Source: a virus. From it: a stretch of 25,586 nt of DNA. The DNA lies in UHGV virus genome UHGV-0108017; one strand, written 5' to 3'. Below are positions 1 through 25,586 of this stretch, piece by piece. Under the pieces are notes generated by a model that searched no databases, had not been told where the DNA came from, and saw only the letters and a list, made by a program, of their open reading frames with translations. Every line of letters begins with the position of its first letter. Positions within the stretch are counted from its first letter, which is position 1. The position numbers and the translations under genes are program-made.

Positions 1-54
1 CATATTGGTCATAGCGCTATCCTTCACGGCTGCATTATATAAAGAGGTAAATCA

Positions 55-67
55 TTTGATACTGCTG
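55..67 (+). repeat. left-end repeat copy 1 (TTTGATACTGCTG), candidate transposase-binding site L1
   Basis: 13-bp motif recurs at 159-171 and 201-213 in direct orientation; followed by AAAAATCCGGG, reminiscent of the Mu L1 region as recalled. Confidence 0.5.
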
Positions 68-158
68 AAAAATCCGGGAGGAAAGTGGATCAAACGGGAT
101 TTGATGGGATAAAACAAACAGTTATGACGTAAAACAGTGTTATGCGCACAACATGTGA

Positions 159-171
159 TTTGATACTACTG
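159..171 (+). repeat. left-end repeat copy 2 (TTTGATACTACTG), candidate transposase-binding site L2
   Basis: Exact 13-mer shared with 201-213; 104 bp from copy 1, close to the Mu L1-L2 spacing as recalled. Confidence 0.5.
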
Positions 172-200
172 TCGCAAAGAAAGCTAAAAACGAAAAAATA

Positions 201-213
201 TTTGATACTACTG
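201..213 (+). repeat. left-end repeat copy 3 (TTTGATACTACTG), candidate transposase-binding site L3
   Basis: Exact 13-mer identical to copy 2; 42 bp downstream of it, close to the Mu L2-L3 spacing as recalled. Confidence 0.5.
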
Positions 214-239
214 ATTTCTGCGATTTTAACGTTTTAAAC

Positions 240-281
240 AGGTTAAAAAACCAGCCGCGGGCTATTGGAATTAGCCCGCCT
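240..281 (-). terminator. putative rho-independent terminator of the repressor transcript
   Basis: 8-bp stem GCGGGCTA (257-264) / TAGCCCGC (272-279) with 7-nt loop; on the minus-strand RNA the hairpin is followed by a UUUUUU run (plus-strand A-run 245-250). Stem overlaps the stop codon at 271-273. Confidence 0.45.
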
Positions 282-855
282 TCGATTCTAAACTACTTGA
301 GAGTTTATCGCTTTCAATTTCTGCCAAAATCTCTCTAACTCTTTCATCCGATAAATGATCTAAAAGTAGAGCTGCTGCACGTTTTCGTCCTTCAAGTTGG
401 ATTAGTTCTTGATTCTCTGGTTCAAGTAACCGTGACAAGTACTTAGCTCCATTTAGCGCGAGGATTTTTGATAATCGCTCTGCCTCTGATGCTTCTAAAG
501 CACTTAGTATAGCAAGAAGGCGCTGTAGCGTTATATCTAGGGGCAATTGGACGTTTTCATCTATTTTAGGTGATATTGGTTCTATATCCTCCTTGCCAAA
601 AACAAGCCAATCAATGCTCACCCCTTCTGCAAAAGCAATCTGACCAGCTACTTGTAGAGATGGTGTCGCATCTTTCTCAAAGTAGTTGTTAAGTGTTGAG
701 AACGGTAGCCCCCACGCCTTCGCCACGGCAGTCTTGGAGCGCCCGCGCATTAACATGGCTAGGCGCTCTTTAATGCTTTCTTTTTGAAACACAGGAAAAG
801 AAAAATCACTTTCTTTTTCAGTGCTTCTTTCTTTTCTGTTAACTATATGATTCAT
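271..855 (-). CDS. prophage repressor (Mu c-like by position), HTH DNA-binding protein
   Basis: Only leftward gene, divergent from ner at the left end. Start taken at ATG 853-855 (MNHIVNRKER...); the ORF-track start at 906 is a GTG. HTH-like segment SKTAVAKAWGLPFSTLNNYF. GC much lower than the rest of the window. Confidence 0.6.
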   Translation of the reverse strand: MNHIVNRKERSTEKESDFSFPVFQKESIKERLAMLMRGRSKTAVAKAWGLPFSTLNNYFEKDATPSLQVAGQIAFAEGVSIDWLVFGKEDIEPISPKIDENVQLPLDITLQRLLAILSALEASEAERLSKILALNGAKYLSRLLEPENQELIQLEGRKRAAALLLDHLSDERVREILAEIESDKLSSSLESKAG

Positions 856-995
856 AAAGAAATATCCTTTTGTAGATAAAAACCACCAAAGAAAGAGATA
901 AAACACCTTTACTTTTCTTTTGTAGTGATCAAATATTTATATGTAGAGATTATCCGGCGGTGTTATCCGCGCAGATAACTTTTAAGGATAAACGA
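856..995. promoter_or_regulatory. divergent early promoter / operator region between repressor and ner
   Basis: Repeated TGTAG(A/T)GAT motifs (871-879, 921-929, 942-950), 18-bp near-palindrome GTTATCCGCGCAGATAAC (962-979), IHF-like GATCAAATATTTA (927-939). Confidence 0.55.
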
Positions 996-1232
996 ATGAT
1001 GTCTATAAATGAAGTTGTTAAACAGGACTGGCACCCCGCGCATGTTGTCGCGGCGGTGCATGTAAAAGGTTTTACTTTACGCTCTCTGTCCATTGAAGCC
1101 GGTTTAAACCAGGATTCTTTAAAGAATGCCCTGTACCGCAAATGCCCAAAATATGAGCGCATTATTGCTGATGCTATTGGTGTTGCTCCGGAGGAGATCT
1201 GGCCCAGCCGTTACGCTCGTAAGGTGGTATAA
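996..1232 (+). CDS. ner: Ner-like DNA-binding early regulator
   Basis: ATG 996 with AAGGA 8 nt upstream. Recognisable Ner/Nlp signature (DWHPAHVVAA...GFTLRSLS...IIADAIGVAPEEIWPSRY). Stop overlaps the RBS of A. Confidence 0.8.
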   Translation: MMSINEVVKQDWHPAHVVAAVHVKGFTLRSLSIEAGLNQDSLKNALYRKCPKYERIIADAIGVAPEEIWPSRYARKVV

Positions 1233-1234
1233 AA

Positions 1235-3322
1235 ATGTTTGTATCAGTTAATGAGCTTGTAGGGCTACCAGGTATGCCGGGAACTGCGCAAGGGGTGCGG
1301 TATTCCATAAGGAAACTGGCCTCATCTGAGCATTTCAGGCGCAAACGTGCGGGTTCAAAAACCATTGAATACAGCATCGACTGCCTCCCTCCGATTACAC
1401 AACGGGCGTTACGTGAGCGACATGTAGCTCAACTGATGGCAAGCGCCCCGCAGGAGATAACTACCCAGCCTCCTGTAAAGCGTGAACGCAAACAAAATGT
1501 TGTACAGCCTGTTGAGGCATATCGCGGTTCGCCACAATTGGTAGAAGAGCGTCTGAATGCGCTTACGGAAAATCAACGTAAAGTTGCAGAAGCGCGCATT
1601 GCTCTTGTCTGTGAAGTTCTACGAATTAGCCAGGAGCCGGGATTCAGTTGTGCCAGCGCTATACGTTTTATTGTGTCGCGGTTAGCACAGGGTAACCTGG
1701 AAGAACGCCTGGAATCTTTGGTCATTACTGCTAATGCCCGTAAAGGAAAAGAGCGAACTCTGAGCGCAATTACGCTCAAACGTTGGATAGCTGCGTTTAA
1801 CAAAGCACAGAATGCCGCAGAACGACTGCTGTTACTGGCACCAGGAAAGCGCGACGAAATAAAACCGGAAGAAATTAGCTGGCTGCCTGAATTTCTGGCG
1901 CAGTATCGTCAGGCTAACGGCAGGCCTATGTCTGAAGCCTATGAGGATTTTGTCGCTGATTGGCAGCGTCGCCATGCGGACGAACCATACATGCTGGAGG
2001 TGATGCCTTCCTATGATGTTGTCCGGTATGCCATGAAAAAACTGCCGGAAGTGGTGAAACAAAAAGGGCGCGTTACCGGCAGTGAATACCGTCAGCTTGA
2101 AGGATTCACCCGCCGCGACTGGACAGCTATGCCGGTGAATTATGTCTGGATTGGTGACGGTCACGGTATGAAGCTGAAATGTGCGCATCCGGTTCACGGG
2201 CGTCCATTTTCACCGGAAGTTACGTTTGTGATCGACGGTGGAACCCGGTTTGTGGTTGGCTGGAGTCTTGATCTTGCGGAGAACGTGTTCGCTGTTGCCG
2301 GGGCGATACAACACGGCATTCGCAATCATGGAAAACCATTCCTGTATTACTCGGATAATGGTTCCGGTGAAACGGCAGATATGCTGGATAAAGAGATCGT
2401 CGGGATTCTGCCCCGTCTGGGGATTAACCACCCCACCGGTATTGCGGGAAATCCGCAGGGACGCGGCATTATTGAACGCCTGAACCGAACATTACCGATG
2501 CGTATAGCCAGGAGGTATCGCACCTATTTCGGCAAGGGTGCTGACCGGGAATCGTTGCGAGTACTTAATCGTGATCTGCGTTCAGCGTTTAATGCCCTGC
2601 AACAGGACAAGCCACTGAGCGCCCGTCAGAAAGCCGCAATGCGCGAGCTGCCGTCCTGGTCAGAACTGATTGAGGCTATCCGTGAGGGGGTGGAGTGGTA
2701 CAACAACCGCCCACATTCTGAATTGCCGATGAAACCAAACGGAAAGCATTACAGCCCGGCAGAGTTCAGAAAAAAACGCTTAGCGGAAGAAGACACTGAA
2801 ATTGAGTGGCTGAGTGATCTTGAGCTGCGCGACATGTTCCGCCCGATGGTGGAGCGTCCGGTAAGACGCTGCGAAATCCAGTGGCTGAACAATATTTACT
2901 ACGCGCCAGAGCTGCGTGATGAACATGGTCGCAAAGTACTTATCAGCTATGACATTCACGATGCCGAGCGAATTACGGTACGCCGTAAGGACGGTAGCTT
3001 TATCTGTGAGGCGATATGGAACGGCAATAAACGCGCAGCCTTTCCTGTCACGGCTGAATATCACAAACAACAGCAGCGTATTAAAGGCATGCGCAAGCGT
3101 GCTGAGGAAAAAATTCGTGATGCAGAGGATGAAGGTATTCAGATTCTGGAACACAAACAGGCTGAACCCTGGCTGGATAATGTTTATCGCCCGGTTGGTA
3201 ATACGGTAACCATCCGGCAACAGGATTATGAGGAAGATTACGACGAAGATTATGAACGCGATTTCAGGCTGGGTTTGCAAAAACTTGCAGCCATACAGGA
3301 ACAGGATGATCCGCTGGCCTGA
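1235..3322 (+). CDS. A: DDE transposase (MuA-like)
   Basis: 695 aa immediately after ner. N-terminal winged-helix-like region resembling MuA; candidate catalytic residues D308 (WIGDGH), D375 (YYSDNGSGE), E414 (IIERLNR) by inspection. Confidence 0.85.
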   Translation: MFVSVNELVGLPGMPGTAQGVRYSIRKLASSEHFRRKRAGSKTIEYSIDCLPPITQRALRERHVAQLMASAPQEITTQPPVKRERKQNVVQPVEAYRGSPQLVEERLNALTENQRKVAEARIALVCEVLRISQEPGFSCASAIRFIVSRLAQGNLEERLESLVITANARKGKERTLSAITLKRWIAAFNKAQNAAERLLLLAPGKRDEIKPEEISWLPEFLAQYRQANGRPMSEAYEDFVADWQRRHADEPYMLEVMPSYDVVRYAMKKLPEVVKQKGRVTGSEYRQLEGFTRRDWTAMPVNYVWIGDGHGMKLKCAHPVHGRPFSPEVTFVIDGGTRFVVGWSLDLAENVFAVAGAIQHGIRNHGKPFLYYSDNGSGETADMLDKEIVGILPRLGINHPTGIAGNPQGRGIIERLNRTLPMRIARRYRTYFGKGADRESLRVLNRDLRSAFNALQQDKPLSARQKAAMRELPSWSELIEAIREGVEWYNNRPHSELPMKPNGKHYSPAEFRKKRLAEEDTEIEWLSDLELRDMFRPMVERPVRRCEIQWLNNIYYAPELRDEHGRKVLISYDIHDAERITVRRKDGSFICEAIWNGNKRAAFPVTAEYHKQQQRIKGMRKRAEEKIRDAEDEGIQILEHKQAEPWLDNVYRPVGNTVTIRQQDYEEDYDEDYERDFRLGLQKLAAIQEQDDPLA

Positions 3323-10069: not shown

Positions 10070-10492
10070 ATGCAGCATGATTTATTTGAACACGATCCGG
10101 CAATTCGCCAGTTAATCGGACATATTGATAACATCCCGGCCCCGGAACTGGAATCACGCTGGCCCCGTTCGGTGGTTGATCTGATTGATGTTCTGGAAAA
10201 CGAACTGAAACGCCAGAACGTCAGCAATCCCCGTGAGCTTGCCCGTAAACAGGCCGTTGCCCTGTCCTGTTTTCTGGGCGGACGGCAGTTTTACATCCCC
10301 TGCGGCGATACGATCCTGACCGCGTTACGCGACGATTTGCTTTACTGCCAGTTCAATGGTCGTAACATGGAAGAACTGCGTCGCCAGTATCGCCTGTCCC
10401 AGCCGCAGATCTACCAGATTATTGCCCGCCAGAGAAAGCTGCATACACGACGTCATCAGCCTGATCTGTTCTCACCTGAAAGCCAGAAATAA
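10070..10492 (+). CDS. C: C-like late-gene transcriptional activator (Mor/C family)
   Basis: 140 aa; paralogous to the Mor-like protein; sits immediately upstream of the lysis/late region as in Mu. Confidence 0.8.
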   Translation: MQHDLFEHDPAIRQLIGHIDNIPAPELESRWPRSVVDLIDVLENELKRQNVSNPRELARKQAVALSCFLGGRQFYIPCGDTILTALRDDLLYCQFNGRNMEELRRQYRLSQPQIYQIIARQRKLHTRRHQPDLFSPESQK

Positions 10493-10513
10493 CCGGCATC
10501 CTGCCGGTTATTT
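10491..10513 (+). terminator. terminator-like hairpin after C
   Basis: Stem AACCGGCA (10491-10498) / TGCCGGTT (10502-10509), 3-nt loop, followed by ATTTCC (weak U-tract). Confidence 0.4.
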
Positions 10514-10516
10514 CCT

Positions 10517-10583
10517 GTCACCATAATCCCGCACCTGCCATCTGATTTTTTAGACTGCCATCAGAGCATTTTTTCAGGGAAGC
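10517..10583 (+). promoter_or_regulatory. candidate C-dependent late promoter upstream of lys
   Basis: Contains ATAATCCC and TCCCGCACCT (10527-10536), a 10-mer repeated upstream of gene I (18111-18120). Confidence 0.4.
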
Positions 10584-11102
10584 ATGATGGCGGGGATACC
10601 AAAAAAACTGAAAGCCGCACTGCTGGCGGCAACGATTGCCGGTGGCAGTGTGGGTGGTTATCAGGAAATGACCCGTCAGTCTCTGATCCATCTGGAAAAT
10701 ATCGCTTATATGCCTTACCGCGATATTGCCGGTGTGCTTACGGTCTGTGTGGGACATACCGGGCCGGATATCGAAATGCGCCGTTACAGCCATGCGGAGT
10801 GTATGGCTCTTCTCGACAGTGATTTAAAACCGGTTTATGCGGCAATCGATCGTCTTGTCAGGGTGCCGCTGACGCCATATCAGAAAACGGCGCTGGCAAC
10901 GTTTATTTTCAACACCGGTGTTACCGCATTCAGTAAATCAACGCTGCTGAAAAAACTCAATGCCGGTGATTACGCCGGAGCGCGTGACCAGATGGCCCGC
11001 TGGGTGTTTGCCGCAGGCCATAAATGGAAAGGACTGATGAACCGTCGCGAAGTGGAAATGGCTATCTGGAATATCAGGGGGGCGGATGACCTTCGCCAGT
11101 AA
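10584..11102 (+). CDS. lys: endolysin, phage lysozyme (GH24-like) with SAR-type N-terminus
   Basis: E-x8-D-x5-T catalytic spacing (ENIAYMPYRDIAGVLT); weakly hydrophobic Gly/Ala-rich N-terminus LKAALLAATIAGGSVGG. Confidence 0.8.
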   Translation: MMAGIPKKLKAALLAATIAGGSVGGYQEMTRQSLIHLENIAYMPYRDIAGVLTVCVGHTGPDIEMRRYSHAECMALLDSDLKPVYAAIDRLVRVPLTPYQKTALATFIFNTGVTAFSKSTLLKKLNAGDYAGARDQMARWVFAAGHKWKGLMNRREVEMAIWNIRGADDLRQ

Positions 11103-17966: not shown

Positions 17967-18162
17967 ACAGAATCAGGCATAAAATCAGCCGCACAGATTT
18001 TTTAAAACGCGCCACGGGATTTTTAAACCGGTATTTAACGGTGTATGAATCCCGTTTTATCTTCCTTCCACTTTCTTTCTCCAGTACTCAAATAGCATAA
18101 CCCCAGATTTTCCCGCACCTCCCGCAAACTGACTGCTCATAAACCATGATGAGCAGCAGGAC
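17967..18162. promoter_or_regulatory. G-I intergenic region: candidate late promoter (P_I) and candidate strong gyrase site
   Basis: 196-bp non-coding gap, unusually long for this genome. Inverted repeat ACGGGATT (18015-18022) / AATCCCGT (18049-18056); direct repeats GATTTTT(T)AAA; ATAACCCC and TCCCGCACCT (18111-18120). Confidence 0.45.
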
Positions 18163-19248
18163 ATGAAAAAACACGCGATTGGCATTGCCGCACTGAGTGC
18201 GCTGTCCATTGACGATGACGGCTGGTGCCAGCTATTGCCTGCCGGTCATTTCAGTGCCCGTGATGGTCGTCCGTTTGATGTGACAGGCGGTCAGGGGTGG
18301 TTCATCGACGGTGAGATTGCCGGGCGTCTGGTTGAAGGCGTTCGCGCGCTCAACCAGGACGTGCTGATTGATTACGAGCATAACCAGCTACGTAAGGACA
18401 AAGGATTACCCCCGGAACAACTCGTCGCGGCTGGCTGGTTTAACGCCGATGAAATGCAGTGGCGTGAAGGTGAAGGATTATTTATCCACCCACGCTGGAC
18501 GGCGGCGGCCCAGCAGCGCATCGATGACGGCGAATTTGGTTATCTCTCTGCGGTTTTTCCGTATGACACCGACACCGGTGCAGTGCTGCAAATCCGCCTT
18601 GCTGCGCTGACCAATGACCCCGGTGCCACCGGCATGAAAAAGCTGACCGCACTGGCGGCAGACCTTCCCGACATCCTTCAACAGGAGAACAAACCCATGA
18701 ATGAAACGCTGCGCAAGCTGCTTGCGCGTCTTGGGGTGACGGTCCCCGAAAATGCAGACATCACCGATGAACAGGCCAGCGCGGCCCTGAGTGCGCTTGA
18801 TGCGCTCGAAACAGATGCCGGAAAAGTGGCGTCGTTATCCGCCGAACTGGAAAAGGCACAGAAAGCCGCCGTTGACCTGACGAAATACGTCCCGGTGGAA
18901 AGCTACAACGCCCTGCGTGATGAACTGGCACAGGCGACTGCACAAAGCGCCACAGCCAGCCTGAGCGCCGTTCTGGACAAGGCGGAACAGGAAGGCCGCA
19001 TTTTCAAAAGCGAACGCACTTACTTGGAACAGCTTGGCGGTCAGATTGGCGTGGCGGCACTGTCGGCACAGCTTGAGAAAAAACAGCCCATCGCTGCGTT
19101 ATCTGCCATGCAGACCACCACAGCGAAAATCCCGTCGCAGGAAAAACCGGCGGTGGCGGTGCTGTCTGCTGATGAACAGGCAGCAGTGAAGGCGCTCGGC
19201 ATTACTGAGGCTGAGTATCTGAAAATGAAACAGGAACAAGAAAAATGA
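18163..19248 (+). CDS. I: prohead protease / scaffold (Mu I-like)
   Basis: 361 aa; N-terminal region resembling the Mu I protease family; Ala/Glu/Gln-rich helical C-terminal half consistent with a nested scaffold domain. Confidence 0.75.
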   Translation: MKKHAIGIAALSALSIDDDGWCQLLPAGHFSARDGRPFDVTGGQGWFIDGEIAGRLVEGVRALNQDVLIDYEHNQLRKDKGLPPEQLVAAGWFNADEMQWREGEGLFIHPRWTAAAQQRIDDGEFGYLSAVFPYDTDTGAVLQIRLAALTNDPGATGMKKLTALAADLPDILQQENKPMNETLRKLLARLGVTVPENADITDEQASAALSALDALETDAGKVASLSAELEKAQKAAVDLTKYVPVESYNALRDELAQATAQSATASLSAVLDKAEQEGRIFKSERTYLEQLGGQIGVAALSAQLEKKQPIAALSAMQTTTAKIPSQEKPAVAVLSADEQAAVKALGITEAEYLKMKQEQEK

Positions 19249-24237: not shown

Positions 24238-25586
24238 ATGACCGGGAAACGCTTAAAGGCGTCTGTCATTATTGACCTTAATGGCAATCTTTCCCGGCGT
24301 TCCCGCCAGTATTCGAACCAGATAAACGCCCTGTCCCGTAGCGGGCAAAGTTCCCTGCGTGCCCTGCGTATGGAGGTTGTGCGCGTTTCTGGTGCCATTG
24401 ACAGAATGGGTTCACTGTCAACCCGTACATTCCGAATGCTGTCAGCCGGGGCGCTGGGTATCGCTGGTGTGGGTTACACCGCCAATAAACTGTTTATTGG
24501 TGCAGCCGCCCAGCGTGAGCAGCAAATTATCGCCATGAACTCGCTGTATCACGGCGATAAGGTCAGAGCGCAGGCCATGATGGCCTGGGCGAAGCAGAAC
24601 GCGAAGGACACCACGTGGGGGCTGAGTGGTGTTCTGGATGAGATCCGTTCGTCGAAAGGCTTCGGCATGACGGATGAACAGACGAAACAGTTCATCACCA
24701 TGTTGCAGGATCAGGGGGCCATGCACGGCTGGGATTTACCCACTGCACAGGGTGCCTCACTGCAACTGAAACAGATGTTTGCCCGCCAGCAAATCACGGC
24801 GGCGGATGCCAACCTGCTGACCGGTTACGGTATCAACGTTTATCAGGCGCTGGCGGATGCAACGGGAACGGACGTTAAAAAAATCCGTGATCTGGGTACA
24901 AAGGGCAAGCTGGGCATGAAATCCATTCTGACGGTATTCAGAACGCTGTCAGAACAGTCAAAAGGTGCACAGGCCAGTGCGATGAACTCCTGGGACGGGA
25001 TGTTCGCCCAGATGGAAGCTAACCTGCTTGAATTTCGCATAAAGGTGGCAAACAGCGGCCCCTTTGAAGAAATCAAGAACGAGATGCGCCGGGTGCTTAA
25101 CTGGCACGACATGGCGGATAAATCCGGGGAACTTGACGCACTGGCAGAAAACATTGGTCAGAAATTTCTGACCACGTTCAGAACGGTAAAAATCGCGGCG
25201 CAGGAATTATGGCGCTGGCTGAAACCGGGTAAAGATGCGCTGGCATGGGTTGACCAGAATATTGTCAGCCTGAAAAAACTGGCTGCTGTTCTGGTGTCTG
25301 TCTGGCTTGCCAATAAAGCCCTGAGAGCAGGCTGGGCTGTGGCAAAACCCTCATGGCAGGTTGCCAGTTATCCGTTTAAAACCGGACGTCGTATGTGGCG
25401 CTGGATGCGGAACCGCAAACGTGGGCAGGCAGGTCTGCCGGTCCCGGATGCCATGACGTCTGAGACGCTGTTGCAGGGTATCGGCATTCAGCGTGTGTTT
25501 GTCATCAACTGGCCCCGTGGATTTGGTGGCTACGGGAGTGGCGGCGGTCGTCGCGGACGGAGCGGCAGAAGAATGGCCCCGCTGTT
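24238..25586 (+). CDS. N: tail tape-measure protein, 5' partial (continues past window end)
   Basis: ATG 24238; open frame with no stop to the window end (about 449 codons); helical Ala/Gln/Leu-rich composition, internal hydrophobic segment, Gly/Arg-rich stretch at the end. Not in the ORF track because it has no stop. Confidence 0.75.
   Translation, partial: MTGKRLKASVIIDLNGNLSRRSRQYSNQINALSRSGQSSLRALRMEVVRVSGAIDRMGSLSTRTFRMLSAGALGIAGVGYTANKLFIGAAAQREQQIIAMNSLYHGDKVRAQAMMAWAKQNAKDTTWGLSGVLDEIRSSKGFGMTDEQTKQFITMLQDQGAMHGWDLPTAQGASLQLKQMFARQQITAADANLLTGYGINVYQALADATGTDVKKIRDLGTKGKLGMKSILTVFRTLSEQSKGAQASAMNSWDGMFAQMEANLLEFRIKVANSGPFEEIKNEMRRVLNWHDMADKSGELDALAENIGQKFLTTFRTVKIAAQELWRWLKPGKDALAWVDQNIVSLKKLAAVLVSVWLANKALRAGWAVAKPSWQVASYPFKTGRRMWRWMRNRKRGQAGLPVPDAMTSETLLQGIGIQRVFVINWPRGFGGYGSGGGRRGRSGRRMAPL

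Follow-up and report, generated by a model that had tools for sequence, protein, structure and literature searches.

We conclude with high confidence that the two sites at which the 10-mer TCCCGCACCT recurs in the virus genome UHGV-0108017 (25,586 nucleotides, the whole of which we call the window) are the canonical late promoters Plys and PI of a Mu-type prophage, and that the 10-mer is not the operator of the late activator C. The original prediction had taken this word, shared by the regions upstream of lys and upstream of I, for a recognition element of a C-like activator. That part does not hold up: the word sits in a different register at each promoter, diverged relatives do not conserve it, and the published operator lies upstream of it. 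Because the 10-mer sits in long-studied promoters and the true C site is the adjoining box, CATAAYCCC, the finding is an ordinary one. The late-promoter architecture of Mu and a 10-bp match between lys and I are already known, and there is little discovery value here, as the architecture was defined between 1989 and 1997 and has lately been seen by cryo-EM. The 10-mer itself appears to be without function.

Late promoters of a Mu-type prophage

The window holds a Mu-type prophage whose C-lys and G-I intergenic regions each differ from phage Mu by two nucleotides in pairwise alignment, and both regions share 98-99% DNA identity with phage Mu, D108, SfMu, and several Yersinia and Escherichia Mu-type phages. 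In the Plys region, the window has T for the C of Mu at 10541 and C for A at 10568; in the PI region, it has C for T at 18069 and T for C at 18140 (approximately +3/+4). None of these differences falls within the 10-mer, the adjoining box or the -10 hexamer of either promoter, and Plys 10511-10529 is identical to Mu in the pairwise alignment. The late-promoter features of the Mu record AF083977 (Mu 10403-10469 for Plys and 17977-18043 for PI) lie exactly under both sites; the record cites Margolin et al. 1989 (PMID 2522923) for the late promoters and marks Plys as C-activated. Mu Plys and PI occupy the same places as the sites in the window, after C and before lys in one case and after G and before I in the other, and they carry the same box, -10 hexamers and 10-mer. 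The two Mu promoters were reportedly characterised by Margolin, Rao and Howe in 1989 and by Chiang and Howe in 1993. C-dependent transcription from Mu late promoters has been shown experimentally (PMC4461284; PMC2582627), and near-identity to Mu suggests that both sites in the window would be C-dependent late promoters of the Mu type. The features on which the argument rests are as follows.

10070-10492, + strand: gene C, late transcription activator of the Mor/C family (Pfam PF08765, E 9e-34; Mu annotation)
10491-10509, + strand: hairpin AACCGGCA-TCC-TGCCGGTT, middle-transcript terminator (perfect 8-bp inverted repeat)
10511-10529, + strand: Plys activator region, -52 to -34 (Mu identity, PMC2582627, and the oligonucleotide geometry of Swapna 2015)
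10512-10527, + strand: Plys 16-bp imperfect dyad, bound by C as in Mu (PMC2582627, start-site geometry)
10522-10530, + strand: right arm of the Plys dyad, CATAATCCC (conserved box CATAAYCCC)
10527-10536, + strand: first copy of the 10-mer, TCCCGCACCT, approximately -36 to -27 of Plys (exact match)
10551-10556, + strand: Plys -10 hexamer, TAGACT (ungapped alignment of the four Mu promoter features)
10563-10564, + strand: Plys transcription start, placed to about 1 nt (geometry of the lys F oligonucleotide)
10584-11102, + strand: gene lys, SAR endolysin, first gene of the lys late transcript (Pfam PF00959, Mu annotation)
18085-18103, + strand: PI activator region, equivalent of -52 to -34 (in register with Plys, PP and Pmom)
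18096-18104, + strand: right arm at PI, CATAACCCC (conserved box CATAAYCCC)
18111-18120, + strand: second copy of the 10-mer, approximately -26 to -17 of PI (exact match)
18125-18130, + strand: PI -10 hexamer, CAAACT (in the column of TAGACT, TATCCT and TAAGAT of Mu)
18137-18138, + strand: PI transcription start, placed to about 1 nt (geometry of the I F oligonucleotide)
18163-19248, + strand: gene I, head maturation protease and scaffold, which heads the I late transcript (Pfam PF10123, E 2e-97; Mu annotation)

The original prediction was right to place the two sites at Plys and PI, because the identity to Mu, the promoter features of AF083977, and the identities of the C, lys and I genes all bear this out. 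It was right also about the activator gene at 10070-10492, whose product is identical to Mu C at 138 of 140 residues, with the differences confined to the last three. The extreme C-terminus of the protein (10478-10489) reads SPESQK, against SPETPK in Mu, just after the motif QPDLF; this motif, reported as a beta-clamp-binding motif of C (PMC12867686), is intact in the window.

Directly 3' of the C stop codon stands the hairpin at 10491-10509, the T-rich tail of which enters the left edge of the Plys C site. Its Mu equivalent is given as a terminator in AF083977 (TransTermHP), and a simple terminator scan did not call the hairpin in the window. A simple promoter scan likewise found no sigma-70 -35/-10 pair in the Plys or PI region; both promoters carry a -10 hexamer in the -10 columns without a usable -35 hexamer. 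The Plys hexamer is preceded by a T run at 10546-10551, and the PI hexamer, CAAACT, occupies the same column as CACACT in a relative (L028). At 18140, the window has T where Mu and approximately 23 other close relatives have C (CACAAA to CATAAA), which gives a closer likeness to a -10 hexamer immediately past the mapped PI start.

Unlike Mu, the phage in the window is a mosaic, and its first 3 kb are not Mu-like in DNA. The prophage begins near base 32-38 of the window, after a short host flank. Positions 1-3000, on the side of the repressor, ner and the transposase, are 98.7% identical to the Yersinia phages vB_YpM_5 and vB_YpM_6 and gave no megablast match to Mu. Because the first 3 kb resemble Yersinia phages and not Mu, we regard the element as a mosaic phage of Mu type that is Mu-like in its late region. 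At least 80% of the window is present, at approximately 96-98% identity, in nine complete E. coli genomes.

Register of the C operator and of the shared word

In Mu, the C site is a 16-bp imperfect dyad with its centre at -43.5 (Jiang and Howe, 2008; PMC2582627). C protects approximately -30 to -55 from DNase I, single-base mutagenesis of Plys has defined -52 to -34 together with the -10 region as required, and bases immediately downstream of the dyad are also reported to matter (PMC2582627). The C-binding site lies upstream of the -35 position (Swapna et al., 2015; PMC4461284), and a cryo-EM study has placed a C tetramer on the dyad upstream of that position (preprint 10.1101/2025.05.02.651988). 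The consensus of the operator has been given as TTAT-N5-6-ATAA (PMC12867686). Isomerisation is the step at which C acts at lys, I and P; the step activated at mom is a different one (PMC4461284).

When set against this operator, the Plys copy of the 10-mer overlaps the 16-bp dyad by its first base alone, and the PI copy lies clear of the dyad. The box CATAAYCCC beside it, by comparison, is the right arm of the Mu C operator and occupies the same columns as the ATAA of Pmom, the promoter at which the operator is said to have been best studied, by Sun, Hattman and Kool in 1997 and by Ramesh and Nagaraja in 1996. The words ATAAYCCC, which the original prediction had noted as a mere flank of the 10-mer, turn out to be part of the real C site; the 10-mer, which it had taken for the element, is not that site. 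The left arms, TCCT in Plys and CTCA in PI, fit the TTAT of the consensus poorly. A dyad at Plys composed of TTAT (10508-10511) and ATAA (10523-10526) was considered and rejected, as its N11 spacing would put the centre near -46, against the published -43.5.

The four late-promoter features of AF083977, each of 67 bp, were aligned without gaps on their -10 hexamers and start sites. Late promoters have also been aligned by their -10 hexamers in published work (Fig 1A legend, PMC2582627). The segments that fall in the columns of the box are these.

Plys: columns 12-21, CCATAATCCC; -10 hexamer TAGACT, columns 42-47
PI: columns 12-21, GCATAACCCC; -10 hexamer CAAACT, columns 42-47
PP: columns 12-21, CCATAACCCC; -10 hexamer TATCCT, columns 42-47
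Pmom: columns 12-21, CAATAACCAC; -10 hexamer TAAGAT, columns 43-48

In this frame, the 10-mer falls at columns 18-27 in Plys but at 28-37 in PI, 10 bp out of register. The Plys activator region corresponds to the conserved columns 3-21 of ten promoters. This mutationally required region takes in the first three bases of the Plys copy, the remainder of which lies over the -35-equivalent position; the PI copy falls wholly outside the stretch that corresponds to it by alignment, and sits downstream of the C site in the spacer leading to the -10 hexamer.

The same offset is seen in the lys, I and P oligonucleotides of Swapna et al. (2015), which include 20 nt downstream of the S1-mapped starts (PMC4461284). 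CATAA stands at insert position 25 in lys F, I F and P F alike, and this geometry puts the box near -41 in all three promoters; the 10-mer stands at position 30 in lys F and at position 40 in I F. The start sites and the limits -52 to -34 used here are second-hand, in that they rest on later papers and on oligonucleotide design. Both the lys and the I promoter oligonucleotides carry TCCCGCACCT, and the legend to Fig 1B of the same paper marks a 10-bp match between lys and I, to which the paper assigns no function (PMC4461284). Going by that legend, we infer that the marked match is this 10-mer.

Aligning the promoters on the 10-mer instead was rejected. The -10 hexamer then implied for PI would be GCTCAC (GCTCAT in the window), a very poor one, and the matrix score of PI would drop from 27.7 to -13.2; the relatives, moreover, fix the spacing from box to -10 at 30 bp. 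In Plys and PI, the box starts 29-30 bp before the -10 hexamer, and this matches Mu PP, Pmom and six promoters of diverged relatives. CATAAYCCC occurs only twice in the window, at Plys and at PI. The original prediction would have the 10-mer recur at the other C-dependent promoters, and had named its absence there as evidence against itself; Mu PP and Pmom contain no match to it with two or fewer mismatches.

The position matrix was trained on eight other promoters, namely Mu PP and Pmom and six from relatives. When restricted to the informative columns, it ranked PI first and Plys fourth among 51,080 window positions; with all columns, Plys ranked sixth of 51,080. The second- and third-best hits, at 25305 (- strand) and 3135 (+ strand), scored far below PI and are probably due to chance. 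The hit at 3135 lies inside an open reading frame, and that at 25305 overlaps no listed one.

In the model we propose, C would be made from the middle transcript and would bind the imperfect dyad near -43.5 with its conserved right arm CATAAYCCC, as published work on Mu indicates for an operator that is identical here. At Plys, PI and PP, it would then help sigma-70 RNA polymerase isomerise to the open complex, the late promoters having a -10 hexamer and no -35 hexamer to work with. The Plys copy of the 10-mer starts at the last base of the dyad and covers the -35-equivalent, and the PI copy sits one helical turn further downstream. The 10-mer most likely represents a chance or relic similarity of two C-rich spacers, partly seeded by the YCCCG with which the box ends.

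Occurrence, conservation and standing of the 10-mer

As originally reported, the 10-mer occurs exactly at 10527-10536 and 18111-18120, both on the + strand; the window contains no other exact copy, and none on the minus strand. The flanking words ATAAYCCC and ACTGC also exist at both promoters, but at distances from the 10-mer that differ between the two. At Plys, ATAATCCC (10523-10530) overlaps the first four bases of the 10-mer, and ACTGC (10554-10558) stands 18 nt past its end; at PI, ATAACCCC (18097-18104) ends 6 nt before the 10-mer, and ACTGC (18132-18136) stands 12 nt past it. Because the flanking words are at different distances, there is no single extended motif.

Recurrence as such is ordinary, with 917 distinct 10-mers repeated on the + strand of the window (1056 pairs). 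Allowing one mismatch, the 10-mer has a count of 4, a value reached in 11 of 100 shuffles. It is the longest word common to the two promoter segments, and a shared word of at least 10 bp between these two 67-bp segments has a probability of approximately 0.004 by shuffles and 0.007 by random window pairs, a post hoc value that rises to approximately 0.03 over the six pairs of late promoters. In Plys, the 10-mer opens with the TCCCG that closes the conserved box, which accounts for part of the match. TCCCGCACCT shows no dyad symmetry of its own, and no inverted partner lies close by.

Relatives were collected through their C proteins, which gave 26 IMG/VR loci and 5 genome loci, the latter from a profile search of genome contigs with a three-sequence C alignment. 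Because the genome-contig search gave 5 loci, phylogenetic depth is modest, with three diverged lineages.

Three IMG/VR contigs and Erwinia tracheiphila (L025-27 and L030, the last being Erwinia): C identity 66-67%
Kluyvera (L031-33): C identity 64-65%
IMG/VR (L028-29): C identity 54%

In 21-22 close relatives with near-identical C, the Plys copy of the 10-mer is invariant. The PI copy is not: among 14 close loci that reach PI, one (L008) has CCCCGCCCCT with the box intact, and 2 of 9 further metagenomic PI copies are variant, with CCCCGCACCT in L038 and CCCCGCCCCT in L042, in a scan that held the flanks fixed and reported variation inside 14 free positions only. These variants sit in otherwise near-identical prophages (L008 near 18053-18062, L042 and L038). 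In the diverged relatives L025-L033, the 10-mer is found at neither Plys nor PI, and the sole copy in L025-L029 lies on the minus strand upstream of C in L029. All of L025-L033 keep the box 30 bp before the -10 hexamer at both promoters, in the form CCGGAATCCCC, CCGGAATCACC, CCATAATCCCC or GTGTAAACCCC. Among ten non-redundant promoters, the informative positions are columns 3-21 and the -10 hexamer. Columns 22-41, into which the whole PI copy and the greater part of the Plys copy fall, are close to uninformative.

How, then, might the two promoters have come to share a word? One thought is that the PI and Plys spacers descend from a single ancestral module, and that the word was shifted in PI when 10 bp were gained there, by slippage or insertion, between runs of CCC. 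Taking 10 bp (AGATTTTCCC) out of PI leaves CATAACCCCGCACCT, identical at 14 of 15 positions to CATAATCCCGCACCT of Plys, and both promoters have a GATTTT run, on opposite sides of the word. The spacing of 30 bp from box to -10 is, however, identical in both promoters and in all relatives, and because it is identical everywhere any such insertion must have been exactly compensated. No intermediate form was seen among the relatives, and with present data this history is indistinguishable from chance; we regard it as unlikely.

It is also tempting to see in the 10-mer, or in its core TCCCGCA, a secondary element peculiar to lys and I that tunes the action of polymerase or of C from the same face of the helix. 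The offset between the two copies is exactly 10 bp, one helical turn, and TCCCGCA occurs once in Plys and twice in PI (18111-18117 and 18120-18126) at a spacing of approximately 9-10 bp. The low chance probability of the shared word, the importance of bases just downstream of the dyad (PMC2582627), and the activation step that sets lys, I and P apart from mom (PMC4461284) all point the same way. The invariance of the Plys copy in close relatives counts against the preferred reading. On the other hand, PP has the mechanism of lys and I but does without the word, these columns show no common word among the diverged relatives, and CCCCGCCCCT and CCCCGCACCT are tolerated in prophages that are otherwise near-identical. 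The same contact is impossible at both -36 to -27 and -26 to -17 relative to a fixed polymerase, and we consider such an element very improbable. In the later papers surveyed, we found no mutagenesis of PI -26 to -17. Equally slight are the prospects that TCCCGCA(CCT) is a helically phased modulator of the open complex at lys and I, or a vestigial right-arm half-site (ATTT-TCCCG) in PI.

The poorest prospect of all, which we give next to no chance, is that C recognises the 10-mer itself: the word is present in both C-dependent promoter regions, is rarely shared by two such segments by chance, and has its first Plys bases inside the published footprint and the required region, but it stands in different registers at the two promoters, finds no near match at PP or Pmom, varies by one or two substitutions at PI in nature, and is missing from relatives in which both the box and a homologous C persist, while the published operator, a dyad with its centre at -43.5, has a consensus of its own, and an asymmetric, C-rich 10-mer is ill matched to a dimer or tetramer that binds a dyad.

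Operator arms in diverged prophages

The preferred reading, in which the box is the C site and the 10-mer a fortuitous or relic neighbour, has a practical side. Anyone annotating Mu-like late promoters should look not for the 10-mer but for the box (C)CATAAYCCC, or the form that it takes in a given lineage (for instance CCGGAATCCCC), with a -10 hexamer 30 bp further on. Set beside the window, the Erwinia and Kluyvera prophages also lend independent phylogenetic support to the published limits of the operator, and the natural PI variants CCCCGCCCCT and CCCCGCACCT could serve directly as alleles in which to test whether the word has a function.

The relatives show further variation in the operator itself. 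Plys and PI of L025-L027 and L030-L033 share an in-register box of 16-18 nt, TCAGATACCGGAATC(C/A)CC, which holds the near-palindrome GATACC|GGAATC. This suggests that the operator specificity of C may have shifted in the Erwinia, Kluyvera and related prophages, whose C proteins share 64-67% identity with that of Mu. At the Mu-type PI, the left arm, GTACTCAAATAGC (window 18084-18096), is nearly identical to the Plys left arm of the Erwinia and Kluyvera prophages, GTACTCAGATACC (L025 9443-9455), whereas the left arm of Mu Plys, ATTTCCTGTCACC, differs. Judging from these sequences, the left arms of the operator seem to have been exchanged between promoters, or to have diverged independently.
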